Program-made: the position numbers and the translations under genes
Notes under the pieces: model-generated
The model's input: the letters and a program-made list of their open reading frames with translations, nothing else
What the model was told of the DNA's origin: nothing
Databases searched by the model: none
Shown here: positions 13,971 through 48,429 of the stretch, piece by piece
Layout: every line of letters begins with the position of its first letter
Position numbering within the stretch: the stretch's first letter is position 1
DNA from: a virus
Lineage: Duplodnaviria; Caudoviricetes
Strand: one strand, 5' to 3'
IMG/VR virus record: IMGVR_UViG_3300035183_000834
Span: 1 to 49,165 of that record
DNA length: 49,165 nt

Positions 13971-14785
13971 AGCTGCAGGAGTTTCGCGCACTCGCATCCC
14001 GGTGCAAATGGGACATCCGTGTCATCCTGCGCAGGCTGGGACTGGCGAGGTTCTACTCCGCCAGCACCCTGGTTTACGCGAAGAGGAAGACAGAGCTGAT
14101 CAGATTGATGAAGAAGTGGATCGCCGCCATGGGTCCGTTTTCGGTGACGCGGCGCGCATCGTTCGCTTATATCGACCCATATCTTGGCGAGGAGATCATT
14201 GCGCTGCCTGTCGATTCCGCTGCGCATGACTTCGCCTCATGGAACAAACGGAAGCTGGCCGCAGCGATCCTGGCGATGCAGGATCTGCTGCTGAGGATGC
14301 TGTACGACTGCGGCATGCCAGGATTGGCGCCGCAAGAGCACTCGCCGTCATCCCCGCTGGTGTTGTCAGGCGGGAGCGGCACTGCCACCGCCACCGACAC
14401 CGCCACTGCCACCGACACCGCCACTGCCACCGACACCGACACCGCCACTGCCACCGACACCGCCACCGACACCGCCACCGACACCGCCACTGCCAATTCC
14501 CAATCGCAACTGAAGCATTCGGACAAGTACATGGCGCAGTATGTGGCGCAACTGGAGCTGCAGCTGAAGGCTGCGGCGAATGCGGCGGGTGCGCTCAGCA
14601 AGGCGGCGGACGAAGTGCATGAGATAGGGCTTTATCTCCGCAACGCCTACGCTAGCGAGATCGCACGGGGGGAGCACGCCAACCAGACGCTGTGCCAGGT
14701 GCTGCGGCGCTACCTGGAGAAGGAGCGCATGATGGCCAAGGCGGCGCCGTTGCGGAGAATGTGGCTCGCGCTGAAGTTGTGGTGA
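13919..14785 (+). CDS. Hypothetical protein with internal (TA/TD)n tract
   Basis: GAGGAG SD before ATG 13919; 3' portion of ORF 13040..14785. Confidence 0.6.
   Translation: MENRAESVYRQSDSGDVELQEFRALASRCKWDIRVILRRLGLARFYSASTLVYAKRKTELIRLMKKWIAAMGPFSVTRRASFAYIDPYLGEEIIALPVDSAAHDFASWNKRKLAAAILAMQDLLLRMLYDCGMPGLAPQEHSPSSPLVLSGGSGTATATDTATATDTATATDTDTATATDTATDTATDTATANSQSQLKHSDKYMAQYVAQLELQLKAAANAAGALSKAADEVHEIGLYLRNAYASEIARGEHANQTLCQVLRRYLEKERMMAKAAPLRRMWLALKLW
14381..14494 (+). repeat. In-frame hexamer tandem repeat (ACYGCC/ACCGAC)n
   Basis: ~19 units encoding TATATDTATATD... Confidence 0.9.
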
Positions 14786-16767: not shown

Positions 16768-18276
16768 ATGAGATCGGAGCAGTGCCCGTACTACCGCAAA
16801 GGGCTGTGCCCGTCCGGGCGCACCGTGGTGGAGCCGGTGATCGTTCCGGGCAGCCGGTTGATGATCATCGGGGAAGCGCCCGGGCCGACAGAGGACAGCG
16901 AGGGCGTTCCGTTCTGCGGCTCGAGCGGCGAGGAGCTGAACCGGATCTACCTGCGCCAGGCGGGGCTGCACCGCGACCAGGTGTCGGTCACCAACACGGT
17001 TCTGTGCCTGCCGCCATTGAGTTCCCGCGGGGATTACACCCCGTCGCAGGAACTGGTGGAACACTGCAGCGGCCGGTATCTGGAAGGCGCTCTGGCCGCT
17101 GCTGCGCCGGATGTGGTTATCGCCGTGGGCGCCGTCGCGGCGAGGCGCATGGGACTGTCCCGGCCTTTGGAAGAGATCGCATCGCTGCCGCACTGGATCC
17201 GGCTGGACGGACGCAAGGTTCTGCTTCTGCCCAGCTACCATCCAGCCGCAGTGATGCGATCCGAGACGCGCCCGGCTGTGATCATGACCTCCATCCTGCG
17301 CGCGTTCGAGCAGGCGGGGCAGGCGCTGCGCGGGAAGTTGCCTCCGGAGGATGCTTTCCCGGAACCGGATTACTGCGAGGTGCCGGATCCGGCGGGGCTG
17401 TCGTTGTCCGGCGGCGATGTTTCGTTGGACACAGAAACCGTGCATGGCGAGTGGTACATGACGAGCTGGTGCGAAGCGCCGGGAGTCGCCAGGTGTACTC
17501 GCAGCCGCGACGTGGTGTCGGCGCTGCTGGACGGGATCAGAGGCTCCGGCATCCGCCTGGTGATGCACAATGCGCCGTACGACATGGACGTGCTGCGCCG
17601 CGCAGGGTTCCGGCTGGACGGCATTGAGATCCACGACACGATGCTCGCCGCCTACGAGTTTCGCACCGTGCCGCAGGGCCTGAAAATGCTCGCGCGGCTC
17701 CTGGCCGGGATGGAGATGCACAGCTATGAGAGCACTGTGCTGCCGCACACGTTGGCCGCTCTCGCACAGTGGGTCGAGGATGCGGAGGAGACGCTGCGGA
17801 ACCGCGTGCTCGCACTCACGCCCGTGCGCGGCGAGCCGCTGCCTCTCATCCAGAACCCGATTCCGGCCCGCTGGCTGAAGCGCAAGGGCGAGACAGTCCG
17901 GGAGCACCGTGAGCGCCTCATGGGCCTTCGCAGCGAGATCGTCGAACTGGCGCGGACGGCGCCGGCGGTGCCCGTGCTCGACAACGCCGGAATGAAGATG
18001 GTTGCCTTGCTCAACGAGGTTCTTGCAGCGGGGCAGCGTGCATCGCACGAGGCGCTGGCGCTGCTGGACAAGGTCAGGGATCGCATCATCGCAGAGGATC
18101 CGGCAGCGTTCGAACTCGCAGTGCAGGCGGCTGAACTGGAGCGCCTGCCGCCGCCGCCGCAGAACACGCTGGCGCATTGCCCGGACGATGTGAGAACCCG
18201 CTACTCGTGCCGCGACGCGGACGCGACTCTGCGGATTTGGATGATTCTGAAACGGGAGCTTGGAGTGGAGGACTGA
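16768..18276 (+). CDS. Family-4 uracil-DNA-glycosylase domain fused to a PolA-type 3'-5' exonuclease
   Basis: IIGEAPG..E..G.PF.G, YHPAA; ExoI LDTET, ExoII HNAPYD, DTML, ExoIII YSCRD. Confidence 0.85.
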   Translation: MRSEQCPYYRKGLCPSGRTVVEPVIVPGSRLMIIGEAPGPTEDSEGVPFCGSSGEELNRIYLRQAGLHRDQVSVTNTVLCLPPLSSRGDYTPSQELVEHCSGRYLEGALAAAAPDVVIAVGAVAARRMGLSRPLEEIASLPHWIRLDGRKVLLLPSYHPAAVMRSETRPAVIMTSILRAFEQAGQALRGKLPPEDAFPEPDYCEVPDPAGLSLSGGDVSLDTETVHGEWYMTSWCEAPGVARCTRSRDVVSALLDGIRGSGIRLVMHNAPYDMDVLRRAGFRLDGIEIHDTMLAAYEFRTVPQGLKMLARLLAGMEMHSYESTVLPHTLAALAQWVEDAEETLRNRVLALTPVRGEPLPLIQNPIPARWLKRKGETVREHRERLMGLRSEIVELARTAPAVPVLDNAGMKMVALLNEVLAAGQRASHEALALLDKVRDRIIAEDPAAFELAVQAAELERLPPPPQNTLAHCPDDVRTRYSCRDADATLRIWMILKRELGVED

Positions 18277-18282
18277 CGAACG

Positions 18283-18846
18283 ATGGAACGCGACTTCAAC
18301 TTTTCCTGCGGCGCATTTTCGGCCCGCGCCCGCATCCGCGTATCGGACGGGGTGCTGACGCTGACCGTGCAGTCTGTGCAGCCGGACGGCAACCGGGAGC
18401 AGCTCGCGGATCTCCTGCTCGGCGCGATGATGCGCACTGTGAGGCTCCGGGGAGCAGTGGCGTCGGCAGTTGACGGGGACGCGGTCCGGTTGTCGGCCAG
18501 GGTCTCCGGCAACGCCGACCTGGACGCAGCGCTGAAATCCATCGACGCACGGTGGAACGCAGCGAGGCCGGCGATACGATCCATGGCGCAGCTGCTGACG
18601 GAGCTGGAGCGCCGGGGCTGGAGCAAACGGGATCTGAGCGCCGCCACGGGGCTGAGCTACCCGCGTCTGTGGGCGCTGATGCAGGACAACGGCGGCTGGC
18701 CGAGAGCGGCGGTATTCCTCAGGCTGAACGAGTGGCTGGACAAGCAGGCGCCGGATCTGGCGCCAACTCTGTCGGTGCTGGAGATGGAGGCGAAGAAAGT
18801 GCTGGGAGGGAACTTCTACAGATCTTCGAACAGGAGCGGGAAATGA
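18283..18846 (+). CDS. Hypothetical protein with C-terminal HTH-like segment
   Basis: GWSKRDLSAATGLSYPRLWALM. Confidence 0.6.
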   Translation: MERDFNFSCGAFSARARIRVSDGVLTLTVQSVQPDGNREQLADLLLGAMMRTVRLRGAVASAVDGDAVRLSARVSGNADLDAALKSIDARWNAARPAIRSMAQLLTELERRGWSKRDLSAATGLSYPRLWALMQDNGGWPRAAVFLRLNEWLDKQAPDLAPTLSVLEMEAKKVLGGNFYRSSNRSGK

Positions 18847-19136
18847 AGCAGCAGATGACGAATACCGAAACCGCGGCAGTGTATTTGGGAGTGCTTCTGA
18901 TTGCGGGCCTGTTAGCCTACAGCATCGCCGCATCGCTTGGATGGCAGTACTTGTTCTCGCTGATCGGCTCCATGGCGCTGGTGTTCGGCATTGCCATGTT
19001 CTCCCTGCCGAAGGTTGCCCGGTGGGCCGCAGTCATGCTGCTCGCCCACGCCGACGCAGTGGACAGCTACCTGGAGAAGGAGGTGGAGGCCTACCGCCGG
19101 TACGAGCGCGAAATTCTGCAGCGCGGGGAGGAGTGA
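18843..19136 (+). CDS. Two-TM membrane protein
   Basis: AVYLGVLLIAGLLAYSIAA and YLFSLIGSMALVFGIAMF. Confidence 0.65.
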   Translation: MKQQMTNTETAAVYLGVLLIAGLLAYSIAASLGWQYLFSLIGSMALVFGIAMFSLPKVARWAAVMLLAHADAVDSYLEKEVEAYRRYEREILQRGEE

Positions 19137-19139
19137 GCC

Positions 19140-20519
19140 ATGGACGTGCGTCTGGTGGACAGGCCGGATCCGGCCAATGCGTACCGTATCGACAGGGGCT
19201 GTCTGGAAATGATCGACGAGTTCCATGCCCACGGAATTCTCGCCGACCCGGAGCGGTTCCGCGAGCTGGACGCGAAAGTGGCGTCGGAACTGGAGCAGGC
19301 GCGAAGAGAGCTGCGCGACATCGCCGGGCGCGAGGTCAACGTCGGCAGCAGTGCGGATCTGGCGCGGTATCTGTACGACGAGCGCAAGCTGGAGCCTCCG
19401 CTGGGGCTGCGCTACACGGCGTCGGGCGCCCGCTCAACCGACAGCGAAACGCTGAAATCGATGCTGCAGCTCGATCCGAGCGTCCGGCTCGTGCTTCGCA
19501 TCCGCGAACTTGCCAAGCTGCGCAGCACCTACACGCAGCCGCTGCCGCAGATGATCCAGCCGGACGGGCGCATCCGCACCACGTTCCGCCACACATCCAC
19601 GGAAACCGGGAGGCTGACCAGCGATAACCCGAACCTGCAAAACATCCCTGGCAGAACGAAATTGGGCCTTGCCATCCGGGACTGCTTTGTCGCACCGCCG
19701 GGGCGCGTGCTGATCAGTTGCGATCTGAGCCAGATCGAGATGGTGCTGGCCGGGCATCTCAGCGGCGACGAGACGCTGCTCAATGCGATCCGCAACGGCA
19801 GCGACATCCACACGCTCACCGCAGTGAACGCAATGGGCGTTGCCGAGGCGCAGAAGCAGTACTACATCGGGCTGAGCCTGAAGGCCAAGCGGGAGGATGC
19901 CGGAGGCAACGAGGAATGGACGGACGAAGAGAGAGCTGACTGGAAGCGGTTCAAGCAGGAAGTGCGGCTGCCGGCGAAAACCGTGGGATTCGGCATCCTG
20001 TACGGGCAGAAGCCGCAGGGCGCACAGTACAACATCGTGGCGCAAGGCGGTCCGCTCCTGCCGCTGGAGCAGTGCGAGCAGATGGTGGAGAGCTTTTTCC
20101 GCACCTACCCGGGCATCCGGCGCTGGATGCAGCTGCAGGAATCGCGGGCCACGACGTTCGGCTGCGTCTGGGACATGTTCGGGCGGGTCCGGTTGCTGCC
20201 CACGGCGATGAGCACGCACGCGCCGCTGGCCAGGAAAGCGGTGCGCGAAGCGGGGAACATGCCCATCCAGTCAAGCGCACAGGGAATTCTGAAGATTGCG
20301 ATGAACCGGGCGATGGAACTCGTGCGCGAGTTCCGCAGCCTGGGATTCGCAGTGCTGCCTCTGCTCCAGATCCATGACGAGCTGGTGTTCGAGGCTGACG
20401 AGGACTGCGCGGAGGATTTCGCCTCCGCGTTGCGGCAAATCATGGTCAGCGCAGTGAAGCTGAGCGTGGACTACAATGCCAGCTACTCCATTGCGAGGAG
20501 CTGGGGACAACTGAAATGA
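19140..20519 (+). CDS. polA: DNA polymerase family A, polymerase domain only
   Basis: TGRLTS.NPNLQNIP; motif A DLSQIE; motif B AKTVGFGILYG; motif C QIHDELVFE. Confidence 0.95.
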   Translation: MDVRLVDRPDPANAYRIDRGCLEMIDEFHAHGILADPERFRELDAKVASELEQARRELRDIAGREVNVGSSADLARYLYDERKLEPPLGLRYTASGARSTDSETLKSMLQLDPSVRLVLRIRELAKLRSTYTQPLPQMIQPDGRIRTTFRHTSTETGRLTSDNPNLQNIPGRTKLGLAIRDCFVAPPGRVLISCDLSQIEMVLAGHLSGDETLLNAIRNGSDIHTLTAVNAMGVAEAQKQYYIGLSLKAKREDAGGNEEWTDEERADWKRFKQEVRLPAKTVGFGILYGQKPQGAQYNIVAQGGPLLPLEQCEQMVESFFRTYPGIRRWMQLQESRATTFGCVWDMFGRVRLLPTAMSTHAPLARKAVREAGNMPIQSSAQGILKIAMNRAMELVREFRSLGFAVLPLLQIHDELVFEADEDCAEDFASALRQIMVSAVKLSVDYNASYSIARSWGQLK

Positions 20520-21760: not shown

Positions 21761-21811
21761 GAATATTTTTTCGAAAAAACTGTTGACAGTCTGACAGTGG
21801 CGGGGCATAAT
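21761..21811 (+). promoter_or_regulatory. Strong sigma70 promoter with UP-like element
   Basis: TTGACA (21783-88)-17 bp-CATAAT (21806-11), preceded by AATATTTTTTCGAAAAAAC. Confidence 0.88.
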
Positions 21812-21817
21812 CAAATC

Positions 21818-22100
21818 ATGACGGGCACAGCCCGGCGGCCTGGGAGATCAGGACGCCGAGCGGTGCTCGGCGACGGCAGCGCCGCCCCATCAAGGCGGTA
21901 GGCGCCGTTGCGGTGACCTGCCCCGGCCACCGGGGGCAGGGAGCTGCACACACAGGTGGCAGCCTCCCCGGGGTGAGGGCGTCCCCCGGGCGGGCGGATA
22001 CAGCGCCACCACGCTTCGGCCAATAGGCTCAGAAGCGCCGCCCCATCAAGGCGGTGAGCCTGAGCACACCGAGGCGTGGAACGGAGGACGCCCTCCCCAG
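21818..22100 (+). ncRNA. Highly structured leader RNA with a duplicated hairpin
   Basis: Many stems; identical 22-mer AGCGCCGCCCCATCAAGGCGGT at 21878 and 22034; long-range pairings ~21975/22086 and ~22009/22069. Confidence 0.6.
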
Positions 22101-22117
22101 AAAACAAGGAGAAAACA

Positions 22118-22333
22118 ATGCCAAGACACAAGCACTCAGTCCTATTGGAGTTCGACGTTCCACATAACCCCAGCCGAAGACGGCAGTTTTGTCGGTGCGG
22201 CTGGCTCCGTGACGTGTACGGAGCCGACGGCGAGCTTTTCCGCCGTGAGTATGGTCCATGGCGTCAAGCGGAGACGCTTGACGAACTCAACGACTATCTG
22301 CGGGAAATGGCGCTCGCCAAAGATCGCCATTAA
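22118..22333 (+). CDS. Small early protein (before ribozyme 1)
   Basis: AAGGAG SD; TAA directly precedes hammerhead 1. Confidence 0.75.
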   Translation: MPRHKHSVLLEFDVPHNPSRRRQFCRCGWLRDVYGADGELFRREYGPWRQAETLDELNDYLREMALAKDRH

Positions 22334-22406
22334 CCCGCCTGACGAGTCCCCTCATGCGGCAGGGGGACGAAACACGGGACTTGCCCCGTGTCGCGGAATT
22401 GCCGCA
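22334..22406 (+). ncRNA. Type I hammerhead ribozyme 1 (cleavage predicted after C22392)
   Basis: CUGACGA-stem II-GAAA-stem III-GUC; stem I CCGC/GCGG; loop II UGCGGC complementary to 3' GCCGCA. Confidence 0.93.
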
Positions 22407-22417
22407 AGGAGAAGGGA

Positions 22418-22612
22418 ATGGAGAACCTCATCAGCATCTTCGATCTTTCCCGCGAGAAGCAGGTGTCCATCGATGTTATCGAGGAGCTTATCGAAGCAAA
22501 GCTCCTCTCCGCCACCCCCGACAGGTTTTGGATCACCCGTTCCTCCGTGGAAGCGCTTGACCGCTTCCTTGAGGCCGTGCGTGAGCTCAGGGAGTATTGG
22601 GAATCCGCCTGA
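22418..22612 (+). CDS. Small protein, ribozyme cassette 1
   Basis: SD after HH1; stop TGA is within the CUGA core of HH2. Confidence 0.75.
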   Translation: MENLISIFDLSREKQVSIDVIEELIEAKLLSATPDRFWITRSSVEALDRFLEAVRELREYWESA

Positions 22613-22674
22613 CGAGTCCTCCCGTGCGGCGGGGGACGAAACACGGGGCTTGCCCCGTGTCGCGGGAAGCCGCA
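22604..22674 (+). ncRNA. Type I hammerhead ribozyme 2 (cleavage predicted after C22661)
   Basis: Complete core; stems GUCCUCC/GGGGGAC and ACACGGGG/CCCCGUGU; pseudoknot UGCGGC/GCCGCA. Confidence 0.93.
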
Positions 22675-22689
22675 GAGAGGAAGGGAGAC

Positions 22690-22950
22690 ATGACTGACAT
22701 CAACGCCATCGCCGACCGTGCCGCACGATCCGGCTGGTTTCGGATTCCGCGTGCCGAGGAGGGACCGTTAACCGACAACGGCTATCGGTATCGGTCAGGA
22801 GCTTGGGCCATCGACGTTTTCTACGGTCCGGGCAACCGCCCGGTGTCCGCCGAGATCGTTGACTGGCCCGACAATGCAACCCGCGCCTCTGCGCGGCGCA
22901 AACTGAAGGTGCTGCTCTCGAGGCTCCTCGAGAGTGAGGAGACTGCCTGA
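22690..22950 (+). CDS. Small protein, ribozyme cassette 2
   Basis: GGAG SD; stop TGA is within the core of HH3. Confidence 0.75.
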   Translation: MTDINAIADRAARSGWFRIPRAEEGPLTDNGYRYRSGAWAIDVFYGPGNRPVSAEIVDWPDNATRASARRKLKVLLSRLLESEETA

Positions 22951-23014
22951 CGAGTCCCCCCGTGCGGCGGGGGGACGAAACACCCGGGCGTCCGGGTGTC
23001 GCGGGATTGCCGCA
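22943..23014 (+). ncRNA. Type I hammerhead ribozyme 3 (cleavage predicted after C23000)
   Basis: Complete core; covaried stem III ACACCCGG/CCGGGUGU; pseudoknot retained. Confidence 0.93.
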
Positions 23015-23026
23015 GAAAGGAATGGT

Positions 23027-23254
23027 ATGAACAAAAATGGCTTCGTCAAGGTGCGCAACAGGCATGGTTTTGTCACCATGCATGCCGGTTTCTCGATTCT
23101 CGGTGCAGAATCTGCGCTGAGTAGGAATGCCTGGACCGTCTGCGCGCGCGACGCAGACGGCGAGGAGTGGGCGTGGGCGCGTTTGGCCACGCCCGCAGAA
23201 GCACAGCAATGGCTCGCCCAGGGGAACAACCTGGGCGAGTGGGTGGAGGCCTGA
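23027..23254 (+). CDS. Small protein, ribozyme cassette 3
   Basis: AAGGA SD after HH3; 75 aa. Confidence 0.75.
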   Translation: MNKNGFVKVRNRHGFVTMHAGFSILGAESALSRNAWTVCARDADGEEWAWARLATPAEAQQWLAQGNNLGEWVEA

Positions 23255-23264
23255 CCCTCCCCAA

Positions 23265-23330
23265 CCCGCCTGACGAGTCCCCCGCGGTGGGGGACGAAAC
23301 GCCCCTTGCGGGGCGTCGCGGGATGCCGCA
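23265..23330 (+). ncRNA. Type I hammerhead ribozyme 4 (cleavage predicted after C23317)
   Basis: Complete core; stem III ACGCCCC/GGGGCGU; loop II GCGGU pairs with GCCGC. Confidence 0.92.
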
Positions 23331-23343
23331 GAGAGGAGAAACT

Positions 23344-23619
23344 ATGATCATCTTCCGAAATGCAGATAATACCATCGTCGGCTGGGTGCCGATCAGCACG
23401 CGCGAGGTCGAAAGCATCGCCCACGCATGCGCCGCGGAAGCGCGGCACCTCGCCGCAATCGGATGCCGGAACTGGACTGCGCACTCGCCCGAGGTTCACT
23501 CCTATCTATTCGGGAGTCCGGGCGACGGCATCATCGCCAAGTATGCGCCTGGATCGGCAGACCACGGACACTGGCTGCCGGAGTCGCCGGAGCAGTGGCT
23601 CCGGCTCTGGACCGCCTGA
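23344..23619 (+). CDS. Small protein, ribozyme cassette 4
   Basis: GAGGAG SD; stop TGA is within the core of HH5. Confidence 0.75.
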   Translation: MIIFRNADNTIVGWVPISTREVESIAHACAAEARHLAAIGCRNWTAHSPEVHSYLFGSPGDGIIAKYAPGSADHGHWLPESPEQWLRLWTA

Positions 23620-23678
23620 TGAGCCCCCGCGCGGCTGGGGGCGAAACGCCCCGCGAGGGGCGTCGCGGAATTGCCGCG
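23612..23678 (+). ncRNA. Type I hammerhead ribozyme 5 (cleavage predicted after C23664)
   Basis: CUGAUGA core; stem II GCCCCC/GGGGGC; GNRA-capped stem III; covaried pseudoknot CGCGGC/GCCGCG. Confidence 0.93.
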
Positions 23679-23691
23679 AAAGGAGATCGAG

Positions 23692-24453
23692 ATGGCTTAC
23701 GTCATCGTCGATGACATGACCCAGTCCGTCATCGACGGACCCTACTCGTCCCGCGCCGATGCGGAGCAGGCTCTGCTCCGCATCGGCCTGGACTCGGCGT
23801 ATGTCGCCGAGTCCCCGGCTCCGGAGCCGCCGTCCCGCCCCGGCACGGAGCAGATCGAGGCTCTGCGCCGGCGGTGGCGCCATATCGCCGGCGGCCACTG
23901 GGTGGCCGCGTACAACGCCATGCGGCGCGGCGAGTGGGAGACCATGCGCCGCGAGGCGGGTGCGGCCAAGGACGCCCGCGCCCACGCCGACCCCATGGTC
24001 GGCGCGGTCTTCGGCGGCCCGCCCCCCATTCCCCGCGGCCTGGAGCGCTACGAGGAGGCGGGCGCCCGCTACGAGCGGGAGATCTCGCGCCTCGCCGGCG
24101 CCGTCAGCGCCGAGATGCGCCGTCACGAGGACTGGCGGCGCGAGATGCGCCTCTGGGAGCGCGAGGCCCGCCGGCGCGGCGGCGACGCTCGCCAGCTCTT
24201 CCGCGAGTTCCACCGCATCGCGGATGCCCTCCCCGCCGCCGGCGCCAAGGTGTCGGTGCTGCTGCGCCCGGCTGTGCGCGGCACTCATCATGAGGCCGAA
24301 CTGGACGGCTCCCGGCTGCTCGTCTACGTTCCGTTCGAGCAGCGGCTGGCCCCGGGCAAGCGCCGCCGGGCCGTAGTCGAGCTGCGGGAGCACAGCAGCC
24401 CGCCTGATCATCATCGTGCGGCCAACTGGGTCCGCTGGGAGGATGAACCATGA
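23692..24453 (+). CDS. Hypothetical Arg/Ala-rich protein
   Basis: AAGGAG SD right after HH5. Confidence 0.7.
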   Translation: MAYVIVDDMTQSVIDGPYSSRADAEQALLRIGLDSAYVAESPAPEPPSRPGTEQIEALRRRWRHIAGGHWVAAYNAMRRGEWETMRREAGAAKDARAHADPMVGAVFGGPPPIPRGLERYEEAGARYEREISRLAGAVSAEMRRHEDWRREMRLWEREARRRGGDARQLFREFHRIADALPAAGAKVSVLLRPAVRGTHHEAELDGSRLLVYVPFEQRLAPGKRRRAVVELREHSSPPDHHRAANWVRWEDEP

Positions 24454-24641
24454 ACGAAAAAACCACCACAACGCGCGGGATCAGCATCCCGCAGGAGTTG
24501 CTGGATGAACTGGACGAGGTGCGCTGGCAGCAGAGGCGCAGCCGCAGCTCGGCTATCACCGAGGCGATCAAGCTTTGGCTCCGGCACCAGAGGCCGGAGT
24601 CTTGGCGCAACCAGAAACGCAAACCACAGGAGGAACAATGA
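24450..24641 (+). CDS. Ribbon-helix-helix (CopG-like) regulator
   Basis: RGISIPQELLDELDEV...RSRSSAITEAIKLWL. Confidence 0.85.
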   Translation: MNEKTTTTRGISIPQELLDELDEVRWQQRRSRSSAITEAIKLWLRHQRPESWRNQKRKPQEEQ

Positions 24642-28971: not shown

Positions 28972-30825
28972 TCACGCCGCCGGTTGTCCAGATCCTGCGC
29001 TGCGCCGCTTGCGCTGCGTGGACTGGGCCGCCGCCGCTTCCGCCGCCTCCTCCGCAGCCCAGATCTGATCCGCAGTAAAGAACTCGTGCAGGAACTGGTT
29101 CCAGCGCTCGGGAGCTTTGCTGACCACGTCCCAGATCGGCGGGAACGTCTTGATCAGGGTGCCGACAACCTGCTCGCCATACTGGAGCACGCTGTCATAC
29201 ACGATCCGTCCCTGCGCCTGCTCGCCGAACATCCCGGCGTCGGTCAGCTCGATAAGGCGTGCAGCGAAATCGGCTCCGCTCTCGCCGTCGGAGAACGACT
29301 GGAGAAGCGGACGGCGGATCATGCCGAGGAACTGGTGGAACTGTGTCATGGTTGTGTCTCCCTGTGGTGTCGGCGGCTGCGGCTGTCCCTCCGGAGCCGC
29401 ACCCGGCTGCACCGCCCCGGCGGGCGGAACGACGCCGGCGGGCATGGATGCTGGCGGGACCGGCTGTCCCTGCCCTGTTTTCGCCACCGCCATATTGTAC
29501 ATCGCACCTGCGATGACGGTTCCCAGAATTGACAGGCCCTGCACGATCTGCGGAATGTAGTCGGTCCACGATGATTTTGGCGACGGCTGATCCTCGATGC
29601 CCAGCAGGTCGCGCAGCTTCTCCTTCACGCCGGAGAGTTCCTCTAGGCTCTGCATCAGCGACTTCGGCTGCTGATCCTGGCTCGCCGGCTCTGTTTGCGG
29701 CTGCGCTGCGCTGCGGGCAAGCATCGTTTCCATGGCACGGATTCGCTCTTCCTGGATCTGAAACACGCGGTCGATGTACTGCTTGTCGCGTTCCATCATC
29801 AGCGCAAGCACGCGCTCCATGTCCGACTGCGGTTTCTCCGGGATCATCTCGCGGATCACCTGCATGGTCTCCTTGAGCACTGCCGTAGGATTCTGCGCTG
29901 TCGGCTGAATCTTCAGGGCCTGCTCGACGCCCTTGTTCATTATCTGGGCGGCGCCTTCCGTTGCTGCCTTGATGACTTCCAGACTGCGGGCCGCAATGTC
30001 GGCGTCGCTGGCTGCGCCGCGGCTTTTCTCCACCTCGGCGCGCTTCGCTTTTTCCTCGGCTACGGCCAGCATTCTGTCCGTCATGCGGTTGACAGTGCTT
30101 GCCAGCTCTTTGACTGCTTCCACGTTCGCCATGTCGTCCTCGTTCTCCTTCCTGCTTCTGAAACCCTCGTCCCCCGGAACCTGGATGCCCTGGCTCCGAC
30201 ACCATGTGATGTAGCTCTGGTTTAGCGGATCTGTGACCTCCAGGTGGTCGAGATCGAGTACCGGGCGGTGCTGCGAAAGATCCCGGCCACCCAGATTGCG
30301 TATCGTGCAGGTGGTCACATTGGAGAGTCCCATGTCCGAATCGTTCAGCTTGAGGTGGTAGTCGCCGGCGCCGTACATTCTGAGCAGATCGTCTTGCGAG
30401 ACATACTCGTAGAGCTTGTCTACCTGACGGTGCCCCTGTTTCATGACGGGCCAGATCCGGTAGAGGTAAACCACGACGCGGTCGTGGTACTCCGGCTTTT
30501 CCATCAGGCTGCGCCAGTAGTCGAAGAATTTCGCCGGCTTGACTCGGGCGTCCGTAGTGTCATCGCGGAAGTGGCGCGTGATCGGCTTCGGCAGCGGTTT
30601 GATCAACACTTTCGGGGGCCGCTTCTTCCGCTCCTTCGGCGAAGCCGGCACTCGCACAGCACGCTGCGGCTCCGTTTCAGGCTCCCGATCCTCGGGAGCC
30701 GCTTCGTCCCGCAACTCCTGCTCGATCAGCTCCGCTTCCGTCTGCCGCTGTTGTTCCAGATACTCCTCCAGCGCCTGATCTTCAGGTGCGGGAGGCACGG
30801 GCTTGATTTCGTCTGCACCAGCCAT
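28972..30825 (-). CDS. Large hypothetical protein with coiled coil and one hydrophobic segment
   Basis: 617 aa, GGAGG SD, divergent from the structural operon. Confidence 0.8.
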   Translation of the reverse strand: MAGADEIKPVPPAPEDQALEEYLEQQRQTEAELIEQELRDEAAPEDREPETEPQRAVRVPASPKERKKRPPKVLIKPLPKPITRHFRDDTTDARVKPAKFFDYWRSLMEKPEYHDRVVVYLYRIWPVMKQGHRQVDKLYEYVSQDDLLRMYGAGDYHLKLNDSDMGLSNVTTCTIRNLGGRDLSQHRPVLDLDHLEVTDPLNQSYITWCRSQGIQVPGDEGFRSRKENEDDMANVEAVKELASTVNRMTDRMLAVAEEKAKRAEVEKSRGAASDADIAARSLEVIKAATEGAAQIMNKGVEQALKIQPTAQNPTAVLKETMQVIREMIPEKPQSDMERVLALMMERDKQYIDRVFQIQEERIRAMETMLARSAAQPQTEPASQDQQPKSLMQSLEELSGVKEKLRDLLGIEDQPSPKSSWTDYIPQIVQGLSILGTVIAGAMYNMAVAKTGQGQPVPPASMPAGVVPPAGAVQPGAAPEGQPQPPTPQGDTTMTQFHQFLGMIRRPLLQSFSDGESGADFAARLIELTDAGMFGEQAQGRIVYDSVLQYGEQVVGTLIKTFPPIWDVVSKAPERWNQFLHEFFTADQIWAAEEAAEAAAAQSTQRKRRSAGSGQPAA

Positions 30826-35264: not shown

Positions 35265-35776
35265 TGGAAGAGGGGAAGCTCGACTGGATGAAATACATCC
35301 TCATCGGACTGGGCGTGTTGCTCGTGTTCCAGTGGCTTCGCGGGCATTACAGAAGGCCACCCGAACTGGCTGCCGGGGGGCAGCCGCAGCAACCGCAGCC
35401 GCAGCCGCAGAGCGCATCGCCGCAGCTGCAGCAACAGCCGCAGAGCACATCGACAACGCCGATTCCGGAGAGTACCGGCACGCCGCCGCCGGACGACGTT
35501 CTCAAGCAGGCGGCGCTGGATCCATCCAAGGCGTCGCTCGCAGGCGGGTGGCGCTTCAGTTGGCATGCCTGGAATTACTACCGGGCGCAGGCGGCCATCG
35601 AGGCCGGTTTGTGCTCGCCTCCGTGTTCGGAGTACGCGCCGGTGCTCGGCGAGCGCTTCGGGCTGACTGACTCGCAAGGCATCACGGCTGGGGAGTACCA
35701 CGCATATCTGGCGCAGGCCGGCATGGGCCGCCTGTTCTGGGGCCGCAATGCCATGCATAGCAGCTGGAGGATGTGA
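35264..35776 (+). CDS. Membrane protein with N-terminal TM and Q/P linker
   Basis: AAGGAG SD; YILIGLGVLLVFQWL. Confidence 0.7.
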   Translation: MEEGKLDWMKYILIGLGVLLVFQWLRGHYRRPPELAAGGQPQQPQPQPQSASPQLQQQPQSTSTTPIPESTGTPPPDDVLKQAALDPSKASLAGGWRFSWHAWNYYRAQAAIEAGLCSPPCSEYAPVLGERFGLTDSQGITAGEYHAYLAQAGMGRLFWGRNAMHSSWRM

Positions 35777-35959: not shown

Positions 35960-36354
35960 TGTTGCATCTTGGCGCCTACGATCCCAACGAGGAAATGCTG
36001 GACGTCTACTACTCTGGAGCAGACGTTGCAGATACCAACGCAGATCCCAACGAGGAAATGCTCAGCTCCTATTACGCCTCCCCATCGTACGCCTCTCCAT
36101 CTGGTGGATCCTACAACACGATCCTGATCCCGGGAACAGTGCAGCCGCAGCAACAACCGCAGCAGCCACAGCAGCCGCAGCAGCCACAGCAGCAACAGCC
36201 GCAGCAGGTGCAGCAACAGCCGCAGCAGCAACCTCTTGTGGATTCAGGCGCAGTGTACAAGGTCACGACGAATGCGAAAGCGCCTCCGGACGTCCCTTGG
36301 GGTCTTTTGATCCTGGGCGCCGTGGCGCTGGTGATGTTTGTCAGAAACAATTAG
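35956..36354 (+). CDS. Tail-anchored protein with poly-Q/P tract
   Basis: HLGA motif, duplicated DPNEEML, CAG-rich repeat, C-terminal TM. Confidence 0.7.
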   Translation: MMLHLGAYDPNEEMLDVYYSGADVADTNADPNEEMLSSYYASPSYASPSGGSYNTILIPGTVQPQQQPQQPQQPQQPQQQQPQQVQQQPQQQPLVDSGAVYKVTTNAKAPPDVPWGLLILGAVALVMFVRNN

Positions 36355-47454: not shown

Positions 47455-48429
47455 ATGGCGGCACGCGTCAGCCAAACGAACAAGGAGATCGCGGGGACGT
47501 CGTCCTCGCCAACGGCCCGTGTCACGCAGGCCAGCGCCGAGATCCTGTCCACCGGAGCTGCGGCCAATGCCCTGGTAACCCAGGCGAATGCGGAGATCCT
47601 GTCCACCGGAGCTGCGGCCAACGCGCTTGTGACCCAGGCCAGCGCGGAGATTCTCAACACGCAGTCCAATTCCAACGCGTGGGTGACCCAGGCCAGCGTG
47701 GAGGTCCTGGTTTACGTCCACAGCTGGATGATCTACGGCATTGGGCCGATAGACGAGTCCAGCGTGCCTGCTCCCACAGTGCTTCTGACGCCGCCGCCTC
47801 CGCCTCCGGTTTTCTACTACTACCCGTCCGGCGGCGGAAAGGTGCTCAAGTACAAGCCGGAGAAATCGGCAATCGACGACCGGTTGCTCGAGCTGCAGCG
47901 GATGTGGGAGGACTACGCCCAGGCGGCTGTGGAAGAGAATCCGCCGGCTGGCGTCCGCGGCCTTGGTTCCGTGGGCCGGATCAGCAACGGCTTCCGGTGG
48001 CTGGAATTCGGACGCCAGCGGAGACCGTGGATGCGGCAGGGATCGATTGTGACGCCCGCGCCGGCCAACGGCGACACCGTGGTGTGCGAGTTCGAGGCGC
48101 CGGAAGGCTACTACGGCTGGCTGAGCGGTTTCTGGTGGGCCTACACGGGCGCCGGCTACATCGAGGGCAGCACGGACATCGAGTGGCGGATCCGGATTGG
48201 CGACCAGTACCCGGACGGGTACGGGCAGGTGCGGTTCCAGATGGGCACTCCGACAGATCCGCTCGCCATCACCGGCATGCTGCCGCTGCGATCCAGGCAG
48301 AAAGTGCAGCTGATCGTGTTCGTCAAGAACGACAGCGGCAACATCCAGGTTGGCAGCAGCAGAATTGTCGGCGGGCTGCAGGGATGGCTGTACGAGCCGG
48401 AGCGGGTCGGAGAAGGAATTCACTGGTGA
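47455..48429 (+). CDS. Protein with 18-aa N-terminal repeats and C-terminal domain paralogous to 44452
   Basis: A(R/L/W)VTQA(S/N)AEIL repeats, poly-Pro linker, RGLGS, YTGAGYIEGSTDIEWRIRIGD. Confidence 0.65.
   Translation: MAARVSQTNKEIAGTSSSPTARVTQASAEILSTGAAANALVTQANAEILSTGAAANALVTQASAEILNTQSNSNAWVTQASVEVLVYVHSWMIYGIGPIDESSVPAPTVLLTPPPPPPVFYYYPSGGGKVLKYKPEKSAIDDRLLELQRMWEDYAQAAVEENPPAGVRGLGSVGRISNGFRWLEFGRQRRPWMRQGSIVTPAPANGDTVVCEFEAPEGYYGWLSGFWWAYTGAGYIEGSTDIEWRIRIGDQYPDGYGQVRFQMGTPTDPLAITGMLPLRSRQKVQLIVFVKNDSGNIQVGSSRIVGGLQGWLYEPERVGEGIHW

Follow-up and report, generated by a model that had tools for sequence, protein, structure and literature searches.

Why would a gene end on the very nucleotides that form the catalytic core of a ribozyme? 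The question is raised by a phage locus in which small ORFs alternate with hammerhead ribozyme motifs. A preliminary description of this DNA noted that three of the ORFs stop on the UGA of a hammerhead core. It proposed that a ribosome terminating there would cover the core, so that cleavage could be gated by translation of the upstream gene, and that the repeat supplies captured ORFs with a ready-made stop and the next Shine–Dalgarno (SD) sequence. We examined these proposals in the window, which is the whole stretch of DNA analyzed (a complete virus record of 49,165 bases with direct terminal repeats at its ends), and in homologous loci.

PHROGs matches in the window include a DNA polymerase, a helicase, and ParB-like and Sak4-like proteins. 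The DNA polymerase is split (window 16768–20519) into two ORFs of 502 and 459 amino acids, both matching phrog_17, with two small genes between them; the start of the first ORF has what we take to be a uracil-DNA-glycosylase-like look. On the minus strand, opposite to the otherwise plus-strand gene flow, lies a 617-amino-acid ORF (28972–30825) for which no PHROGs or Pfam match was found. Low-complexity and 54-nt tandem repeats occur in coding regions at 14359–14513, 35380–35443, 36132–36237, and 47510–47708.

The hammerhead array is headed by a plus-strand sigma-70-type promoter, TTGACA-17-CATAAT (21783–21811), that matches the consensus at 11 of 12 positions. Three sites of this type were found in the region, versus 0.5 expected from shuffled sequences, and judging from the promoter the array operon would be early. 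The promoter is followed on the same strand by a GC-rich structured leader of ∼300 nt (21815–22117), whose predicted folding is unusually stable (z = −7.1; none of 100 shuffles folds as well) and which carries two copies of one 21-nt hairpin motif at about 21884 and 22036. Rfam yielded no match for the leader, and the full 21-nt motif was not found in the homolog loci searched; one related contig covers the leader. Downstream from the array, positions 24450–24641 encode a small ribbon–helix–helix protein (PF01402, above cut-off) that could be a regulator of the array promoter.

Five type I hammerhead motifs are present, all on the plus strand and with one ORF per interval. HH1 (22335–22406; C3 at 22339) has a predicted cut after 22392 and a pseudoknot strand, which doubles as the decoy strand discussed below, at 22401–22406, with an SD at 22407. 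HH2 (22604–22674; C3 at 22609) has a predicted cut after 22661 and a pseudoknot strand at 22669–22674. The predicted cut of HH3 (22943–23014; C3 at 22947), whose stem I contains a U–G wobble, follows position 23000, that of HH4 (23265–23330; C3 at 23270) follows 23317, and that of HH5 (23612–23678; C3 at 23616) follows 23664. Hammerheads have the consensus core CUGANGA, the sequence GAAA, and an NUH cleavage triplet, and this consensus is also visible in the Rfam model. CUGAYGA, GAAA, and GUC occur in all five copies, and the core positions are invariant in the alignment.

Stems I, II, and III are fully paired in all five copies, stem I being open-ended as in type I ribozymes. Across the five-copy alignment 99.1% of 113 cells pair and five pairs are changed on both sides, including one in stem II, three in stem III, and none in stem I; 0 of 500 shuffles reach this pairing percentage or the covariation score, which nevertheless draws on five related sequences and so constitutes modest evidence. 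Loop II can pair with 5–6 nt of the 3′ tail that follows stem I in every copy, with one compensatory change (U–A to C–G, in HH5), and this pseudoknot tail ends 0–3 nt before the next SD. A pseudoknot helix score of at least 5 was obtained for 103 of 322 homologs among the matches listed, compared with 15% after partner swaps. The invariant cores and two-sided pair changes point to selection acting on the RNA fold. The five copies are predicted to self-cleave.

The copies have the topology and core of Rfam Hammerhead_1 (RF00163, type I), and three of them align over all 45 model positions. They differ from that family in their longer stems II and III and their pseudoknot tail, and they score below its gathering threshold of 34: Three are listed (26.8, 26.4, and 22.6 bits) and two, HH2 and HH5, are not. 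When folded by a model that excludes pseudoknots, stem I has a probability of 0–0.01 in four copies and 0.8 in HH4. On this modeling, the active hammerhead fold may be marginal and easily tipped.

Six plus-strand ORFs follow the promoter and leader and are separated by the five repeats. ORF1 (71 amino acids; 22118–22333) has its own TAA (22331–22333), which lies 9 nt before the core UGA of HH1 and in frame with it. ORF2 (64 amino acids; 22418–22612), ORF3 (86 amino acids; 22690–22950), and ORF5 (91 amino acids; 23344–23619) each start with an ATG and an SD, have GCC as their last codon, and stop on the core UGA of HH2 (22610–22612), HH3 (22948–22950), and HH5 (23617–23619), respectively, just as the preliminary description had placed them. 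Its further observation that the ends of these genes form the 5′ strand of stem I (4–5 bp) also holds, the overlap comprising the last 1 1/3 to 2 codons, as does its statement that the remaining two stops lie just upstream of the core. The second of these is the TGA (23252–23254) of ORF4 (75 amino acids; 23027–23254), 19 nt before the core UGA of HH4. ORF6 (253 amino acids; 23692–24453) is the first gene 3′ of the last ribozyme. TGA ends 36 of the 42 genes in a hand-picked gene chain of the window.

The three core-stopping ORFs belong to real families, with five homologs for ORF2, five for ORF3, and 11 for ORF5. None of the six array ORFs matches PHROGs or Pfam, and an Atlas search gave no usable match for ORF5 and only matches below the bar for ORF6; an anti-defense role for the array cargo is unsupported by these searches. 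A two-codon mini-ORF (ATG GTA TGA; window 23022–23030) follows HH3 and overlaps the start of ORF4. The end of ORF4 (window 23247–23256) reads GCC TGA C, identical to the start of the repeat although 19 nt 5′ of HH4, and is possibly a relic of an earlier core-UGA junction; in locus L022 a similar end precedes a hammerhead copy.

To establish where stops fall in general, we surveyed homologous loci. Five pattern scans, four of which fixed most or all of stem I, returned at least 535 loci, and flanks were taken for at most 80 loci per scan, which makes the survey a sample. A structural filter gave at least 621 hits, of which 365 were unique; 334 remained once redundancy was removed and a minimum of 150 nt of upstream sequence was required. 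Removal of the window copies and of those with <400 nt upstream left 241 non-redundant ribozymes among the matches listed. A simple SD-plus-start caller assigned an upstream ORF to 157 of these copies and found no callable ORF end near the other 84.

Among the matches listed, 41 of the 157 genes stop at offset 0, on the core UGA itself, 55 stop at −12 to −7, 28 at −20 to −13, 27 farther up (>20 nt), and six just downstream from the UGA. At 464 control CTGA sites the counts are 55 at 0, 20 at −12 to −5, 15 at −20 to −13, and 128 downstream. Expressed for the same listed matches, the core UGA is used in 26% of cases (41/157) versus 12% of controls (55/464), the stop lies 7–20 nt upstream in 83 of 157 versus 35 of 464 controls at 5–20 nt, and the gene runs past the UGA in six of 157 versus 128 of 464. 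A bootstrap with one copy per locus gives, again among the matches listed, 26% (19%–34%) at 0 and 77% (70%–84%) at 0 to −20. The upstream stops in this set peak at −9 (22 copies), followed by −8 (15), −10 (8), and a tail, and in 31 listed cases the stop ends exactly at the stem I boundary. Positions −9 and −8 are as near to the ribozyme as a stop can be placed with stem I left free of it.

All six stops past the core UGA are ahead of the cut, and none of the 157 called genes among the matches listed crosses it. SD-started ORFs that are open at the core are distributed 42:8:2 by frame in the listed matches. In a separate frame scan of those matches, eight ORFs enter in other frames; six end before the cut and two cross it, both at copies with another evident gene end (L004, offset 0; L052, TAG at −8). 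Stop classes are mixed within arrays, with offsets of −10, 0, −8, and 0 in L004 and of −9, 0, 13, −10, and 0 in L025; in L528 all three copies are at 0.

The proximity of stops to the core is far beyond chance, and use of the UGA itself is a minority class. With 124 of 157 stops at 0 to −20 among the matches listed, placement in homologous arrays is not random, which agrees with the expectation of the preliminary description. The idea that the core UGA is specially chosen finds no support: Genes with their own upstream stop outnumber those using the UGA (83 versus 41), and the upstream stops do not favor the UGA frame (31/83; p = 0.48), both among the matches listed. This absence of in-frame bias also speaks against selection of the UGA as a back-up stop. 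Where a locus uses the core UGA, its other genes tend to end in TGA as well (59/103 versus 87/204, p = 0.016, among the matches listed).

An origin of the core-UGA class by decay of an upstream stop was considered and rejected. In 18 of 41 cases a single change would turn the codon at −9 into TAA, against a background of 10.6%. However, an excess of A at −8 and −7 is also seen in copies that have no callable ORF (0.49 and 0.44 among the matches listed), which confounds this reading. The TGG at −9 in ORF5 encodes an invariant Trp and likewise speaks against it.

On the 3′ side, the proposal that the repeat carries the next SD is borne out: Among the matches listed, 229 of 322 copies have an SD-linked start no more than 120 nt from the cut, at a median of 39 nt. 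In four loci with unrelated arrays (L004, L018, L025, and L528), the stretch that separates the ribozyme tail from the start codon contains a conserved CTGCAATGGAG-like motif. In L093–L096 and L127, unlike in the window, stem I sequences differ within one array and cannot cross-pair.

We favor, with a probability of roughly 0.6, the explanation that stops become fixed at the core through gene packing and through selection against stop-less mRNA, within an mRNA-dividing array of a known kind. The five hammerheads between the six small genes probably cut the transcript constitutively into single-gene mRNAs. Each ribozyme would fold and cleave after GUC. The downstream product would bear a 5′-OH, and its first 12–13 nt would refold into a GCGG/CCGC hairpin (the decoy) just 5′ of the SD, where it would help release and stability, as proposed for RiboJ. 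The upstream product would carry stems II and III and a cyclic phosphate at its end, which would leave hardly any 3′ UTR exposed.

Stop-less mRNAs need ribosome rescue. Genes that cross the cut would give such an mRNA and be lost, and after loss of its stop, or a joining event at the repeat, a gene would survive only if a stop is met before the cut. The core UGA would offer this stop in one frame of three; once in use, it would be maintained by catalysis at first and by the gene later on, which would make the state persist. Three genes thus probably stop on the core UGA because packing pushes gene ends to stem I, where this UGA is the only fixed stop before the cut. A ribosome terminating there would melt stem I briefly, which likely amounts to a modest slowing of cleavage and not to a switch.

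Ordinary gene gaps in this phage are short, with a median of 1 nt and 30 of 31 at 12 nt or less (31 gaps under 100 nt among 42 hand-picked window genes). Ribozyme-free junctions in the homolog loci have a median stop-to-start distance of 53 nt (n = 287), a figure that gives tight packing no support and that comes from a crude ORF caller that misses genes. Type II hammerheads, in which the core UGA lies after the cut, provide a control: From 95 non-redundant examples, 24 of them without an ORF, the upstream stop lies between −8 and 12 nt from the first helix in 54 of the remaining 71 (the median distance is 2 nt). This control is also compatible with melting of the first helix by a ribosome.

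The histories of the core-stopping genes bear on how such overlaps arise and persist. Stops of homologs were deduced from C-terminal residues, except in L542 and L543, for which DNA was used. ORF3 ends Thr-Ala at the core, whereas none of its five homologs (71%–85% identical) ends in Ala; they end 0–2 residues earlier, and from this comparison the use of the core UGA by ORF3 looks recent. Four of five ORF2 homologs end Ser-Ala, and L542 has two ORF2 homologs with their own TAA in a hammerhead-free array. All 11 ORF5 homologs end in the same column, with Ala in nine and Ser in two. The overlap is kept in ORF5 and ORF2 homologs across 52%–82% identity, and this conservation, like the three copies of L528 at 0, fits either a ratchet or selection.

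In L543 (positions 2769–2810), an ORF5 ortholog ends on a relic 5′ half-hammerhead joined straight to an SD. GAAA, stem III, and the cut site are gone, and the 5.3-kb locus has no intact hammerhead, so the sequence indicates a stop that has outlived its ribozyme. Three relic half-cores were found in homolog loci among the matches listed, and one of the three ends an ORF. The proposal that the repeat can donate a stop is therefore upheld, both by the 86-amino-acid ORF3, which ends on the core UGA while none of its five homologs ends in Ala, and by the L543 relic half-core, which still stops an ORF. The related suggestion that the repeats act as a capture cassette is supported in part: In related contigs, L052 and L529 among them, the intervals separating these repeats contain other genes.

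A pile-up of stops is expected from packing and from gating alike. Under gating, the terminating ribosome would hold the 5′ strand of stem I, the freed GCGG would pair with the downstream CCGC and so remove the pseudoknot strand, and the ribozyme would be off while its gene is translated and cut afterward. The proposal is supported insofar as a terminating ribosome would cover stem I, given the ∼10 nt reported as protected downstream from the A site (PMC4824070). With a 10-nt footprint, 120 of 157 stops among the matches listed touch the 5′ strand of stem I and 96 cover all of it; four of the five window copies have a stop within reach, and the ORF4 stop falls just beyond this reach of HH4. 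A physical precedent exists in the terminators described by Li et al. (2016; PMC4824070), where a ribosome occupying a stop codon a few bases ahead of the helix prevents it from folding and represses the terminator hairpin almost fully. However, a terminator makes a one-time co-transcriptional decision, whereas a ribozyme could presumably refold between ribosomes and cleave later. A downstream copy of the stem I strand is conserved more widely than the pseudoknot would require, occurring in 97 of 193 listed copies whose loop II cannot pair with CCGC (24 expected). It also varies along with stem I: Copies with other stem I sequences have a matching hairpin in 30 of 59 cases, versus a mean of 19.8 and a maximum of 27 in 200 partner swaps, among the matches listed. 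Yet the decoy is no commoner where a stop is in reach (57/96 versus 71/138, p = 0.29, among the matches listed), and its −4.7 to −5.7 kcal/mol must compete with −4.4 to −8.3 for stem I plus −8.5 to −10.8 for the pseudoknot, all crude duplex values without loop costs. A toy model with assumed rates gives a slowing of 1.0- to 5-fold. Moreover, among the matches listed, an upstream ORF end could not be called for 84 of 241 copies, and 27 of 157 stops are >20 nt away. L543 has lost the ribozyme and L542 lacks one, stops are packed just as tightly against type II hammerheads (54/71), and clustered hammerheads are reported to cleave in vitro without translation (PMC3088659). We consider gating quite unlikely; by analogy, the decoy is most simply taken as a post-cleavage 5′ hairpin like that of RiboJ. 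More doubtful still is a scheme in which the cut comes first and the ribosome drives release: The terminating ribosome would unzip stem I, the 5′ hairpin would snap in, religation would be blocked, and the next ribosome site would be freed, coupling one gene's termination to initiation of the next. The products would be held together by stem I and by the 5–6-bp pseudoknot that ends 0–3 nt before the SD, the region from SD to start is predicted to be more accessible in product than in precursor in four of five copies (by a model without pseudoknots), and the decoy hairpin is conserved; but the ribosome would melt stem I and not directly the pseudoknot, decoy and stop class are unassociated (p = 0.29), and such short duplexes would probably separate unaided. 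The broader proposition that the arrays are ribosome-operated, with the ribosome stripping the stem I strand, a conserved copy capturing its partner, and translation setting either the cut or the release of product and ribosome site, is unlikely on our assessment.

Two further readings were considered. The excised units, with their 5′-OH and cyclic phosphate ends, might rebuild a hybrid hammerhead and ligate into circular mini-mRNAs whose stop lies in the reformed core. A hybrid stem I of 4–5 bp could form in all four units of the window and, among the matches listed, in 22 of the 31 homologous units that escape the CCGC/GCGG search bias; between the five copies, two-sided changes affect three pairs of stem III and none of stem I. 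But nine of the 31 listed units are incompatible, the decoy hairpin would hide the 5′ end, the main text of Perreault et al. reports that circular or spliced products were sought and none found (PMC3088659), and shared stems would be expected after mere duplication; we regard circles as very improbable. It is scarcely credible, finally, that the repeats matter mainly as DNA, serving as recombination handles that equip captured genes with an SD and a spare stop while their catalysis is incidental. The other genes between the same repeats in L052 and L529 and the retention of stop and SD alone in L543 are what this reading would predict, but the core is invariant in all five copies, 99.1% of paired cells hold, and five pairs are changed on both sides (0 of 500 shuffles).

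The preferred reading, packing with selection against stop-less mRNA, places the locus among known arrays. Perreault et al. (2011) described clustered hammerheads that flank single genes in prophages and proposed that they divide polycistronic RNA (PMC3088659). Three clustered arrays cleaved during in vitro transcription and one cleaved in E. coli under T7 polymerase, a test that does not mimic coupled translation; a pseudoknot of the same kind as in the window was required for rapid cleavage of a type II example (PMC3088659). The window has the layout of these arrays: several same-orientation hammerheads in a phage context, single short variable genes between them, and a stem I–II pseudoknot, to which the proposal of gene-length mRNAs would apply equally. 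It has five copies, as against the three tested there. The main text of that article does not deal with stops inside the core, with packing of genes against stem I, or with the decoy; its supplementary figures or Dataset S1 may show overlaps (PMC3088659). A search of titles and abstract openings, in which subscription journals are thinly covered, returned no report of a stop/core overlap or of translation effects on hammerheads. The array is of a known kind, with a layout rule of stops in or against the core that this search did not find in print.

RiboJ (Clifton et al. 2018; PMC6206723) resembles the window copies in being a self-cleaving ribozyme followed by a hairpin ahead of a ribosome site, and its use is reported to raise mRNA about twofold and protein two- to tenfold. 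It differs in being engineered and placed after a promoter, whereas the window hairpin would form by alternative pairing of the ribozyme's own strands, in a unit that lies between genes and overlaps the upstream stop.

A review from 2019 describes the purpose of clustered phage hammerheads as open (PMC6765202). The present layout narrows that purpose, as stops are crowded against the first helix of type I and type II ribozymes alike and a 5′ hairpin would form on the new end. Here, clearly, a single trinucleotide belongs to a catalytic core and is a stop codon as well, and the relic shows such a stop outliving its ribozyme. If translation controlled the cut, self-cleaving RNA would have a new role in regulation, and a ribosome-operated array would amount to a natural translation-sensing ribozyme across hundreds of phages; the window array offers matched cases for this question, with stop offsets of 0, 0, 0, −9, and −19. 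On the reading that we prefer, the layout points to fully protected single-gene mRNAs, which would be the natural counterpart of RiboJ.
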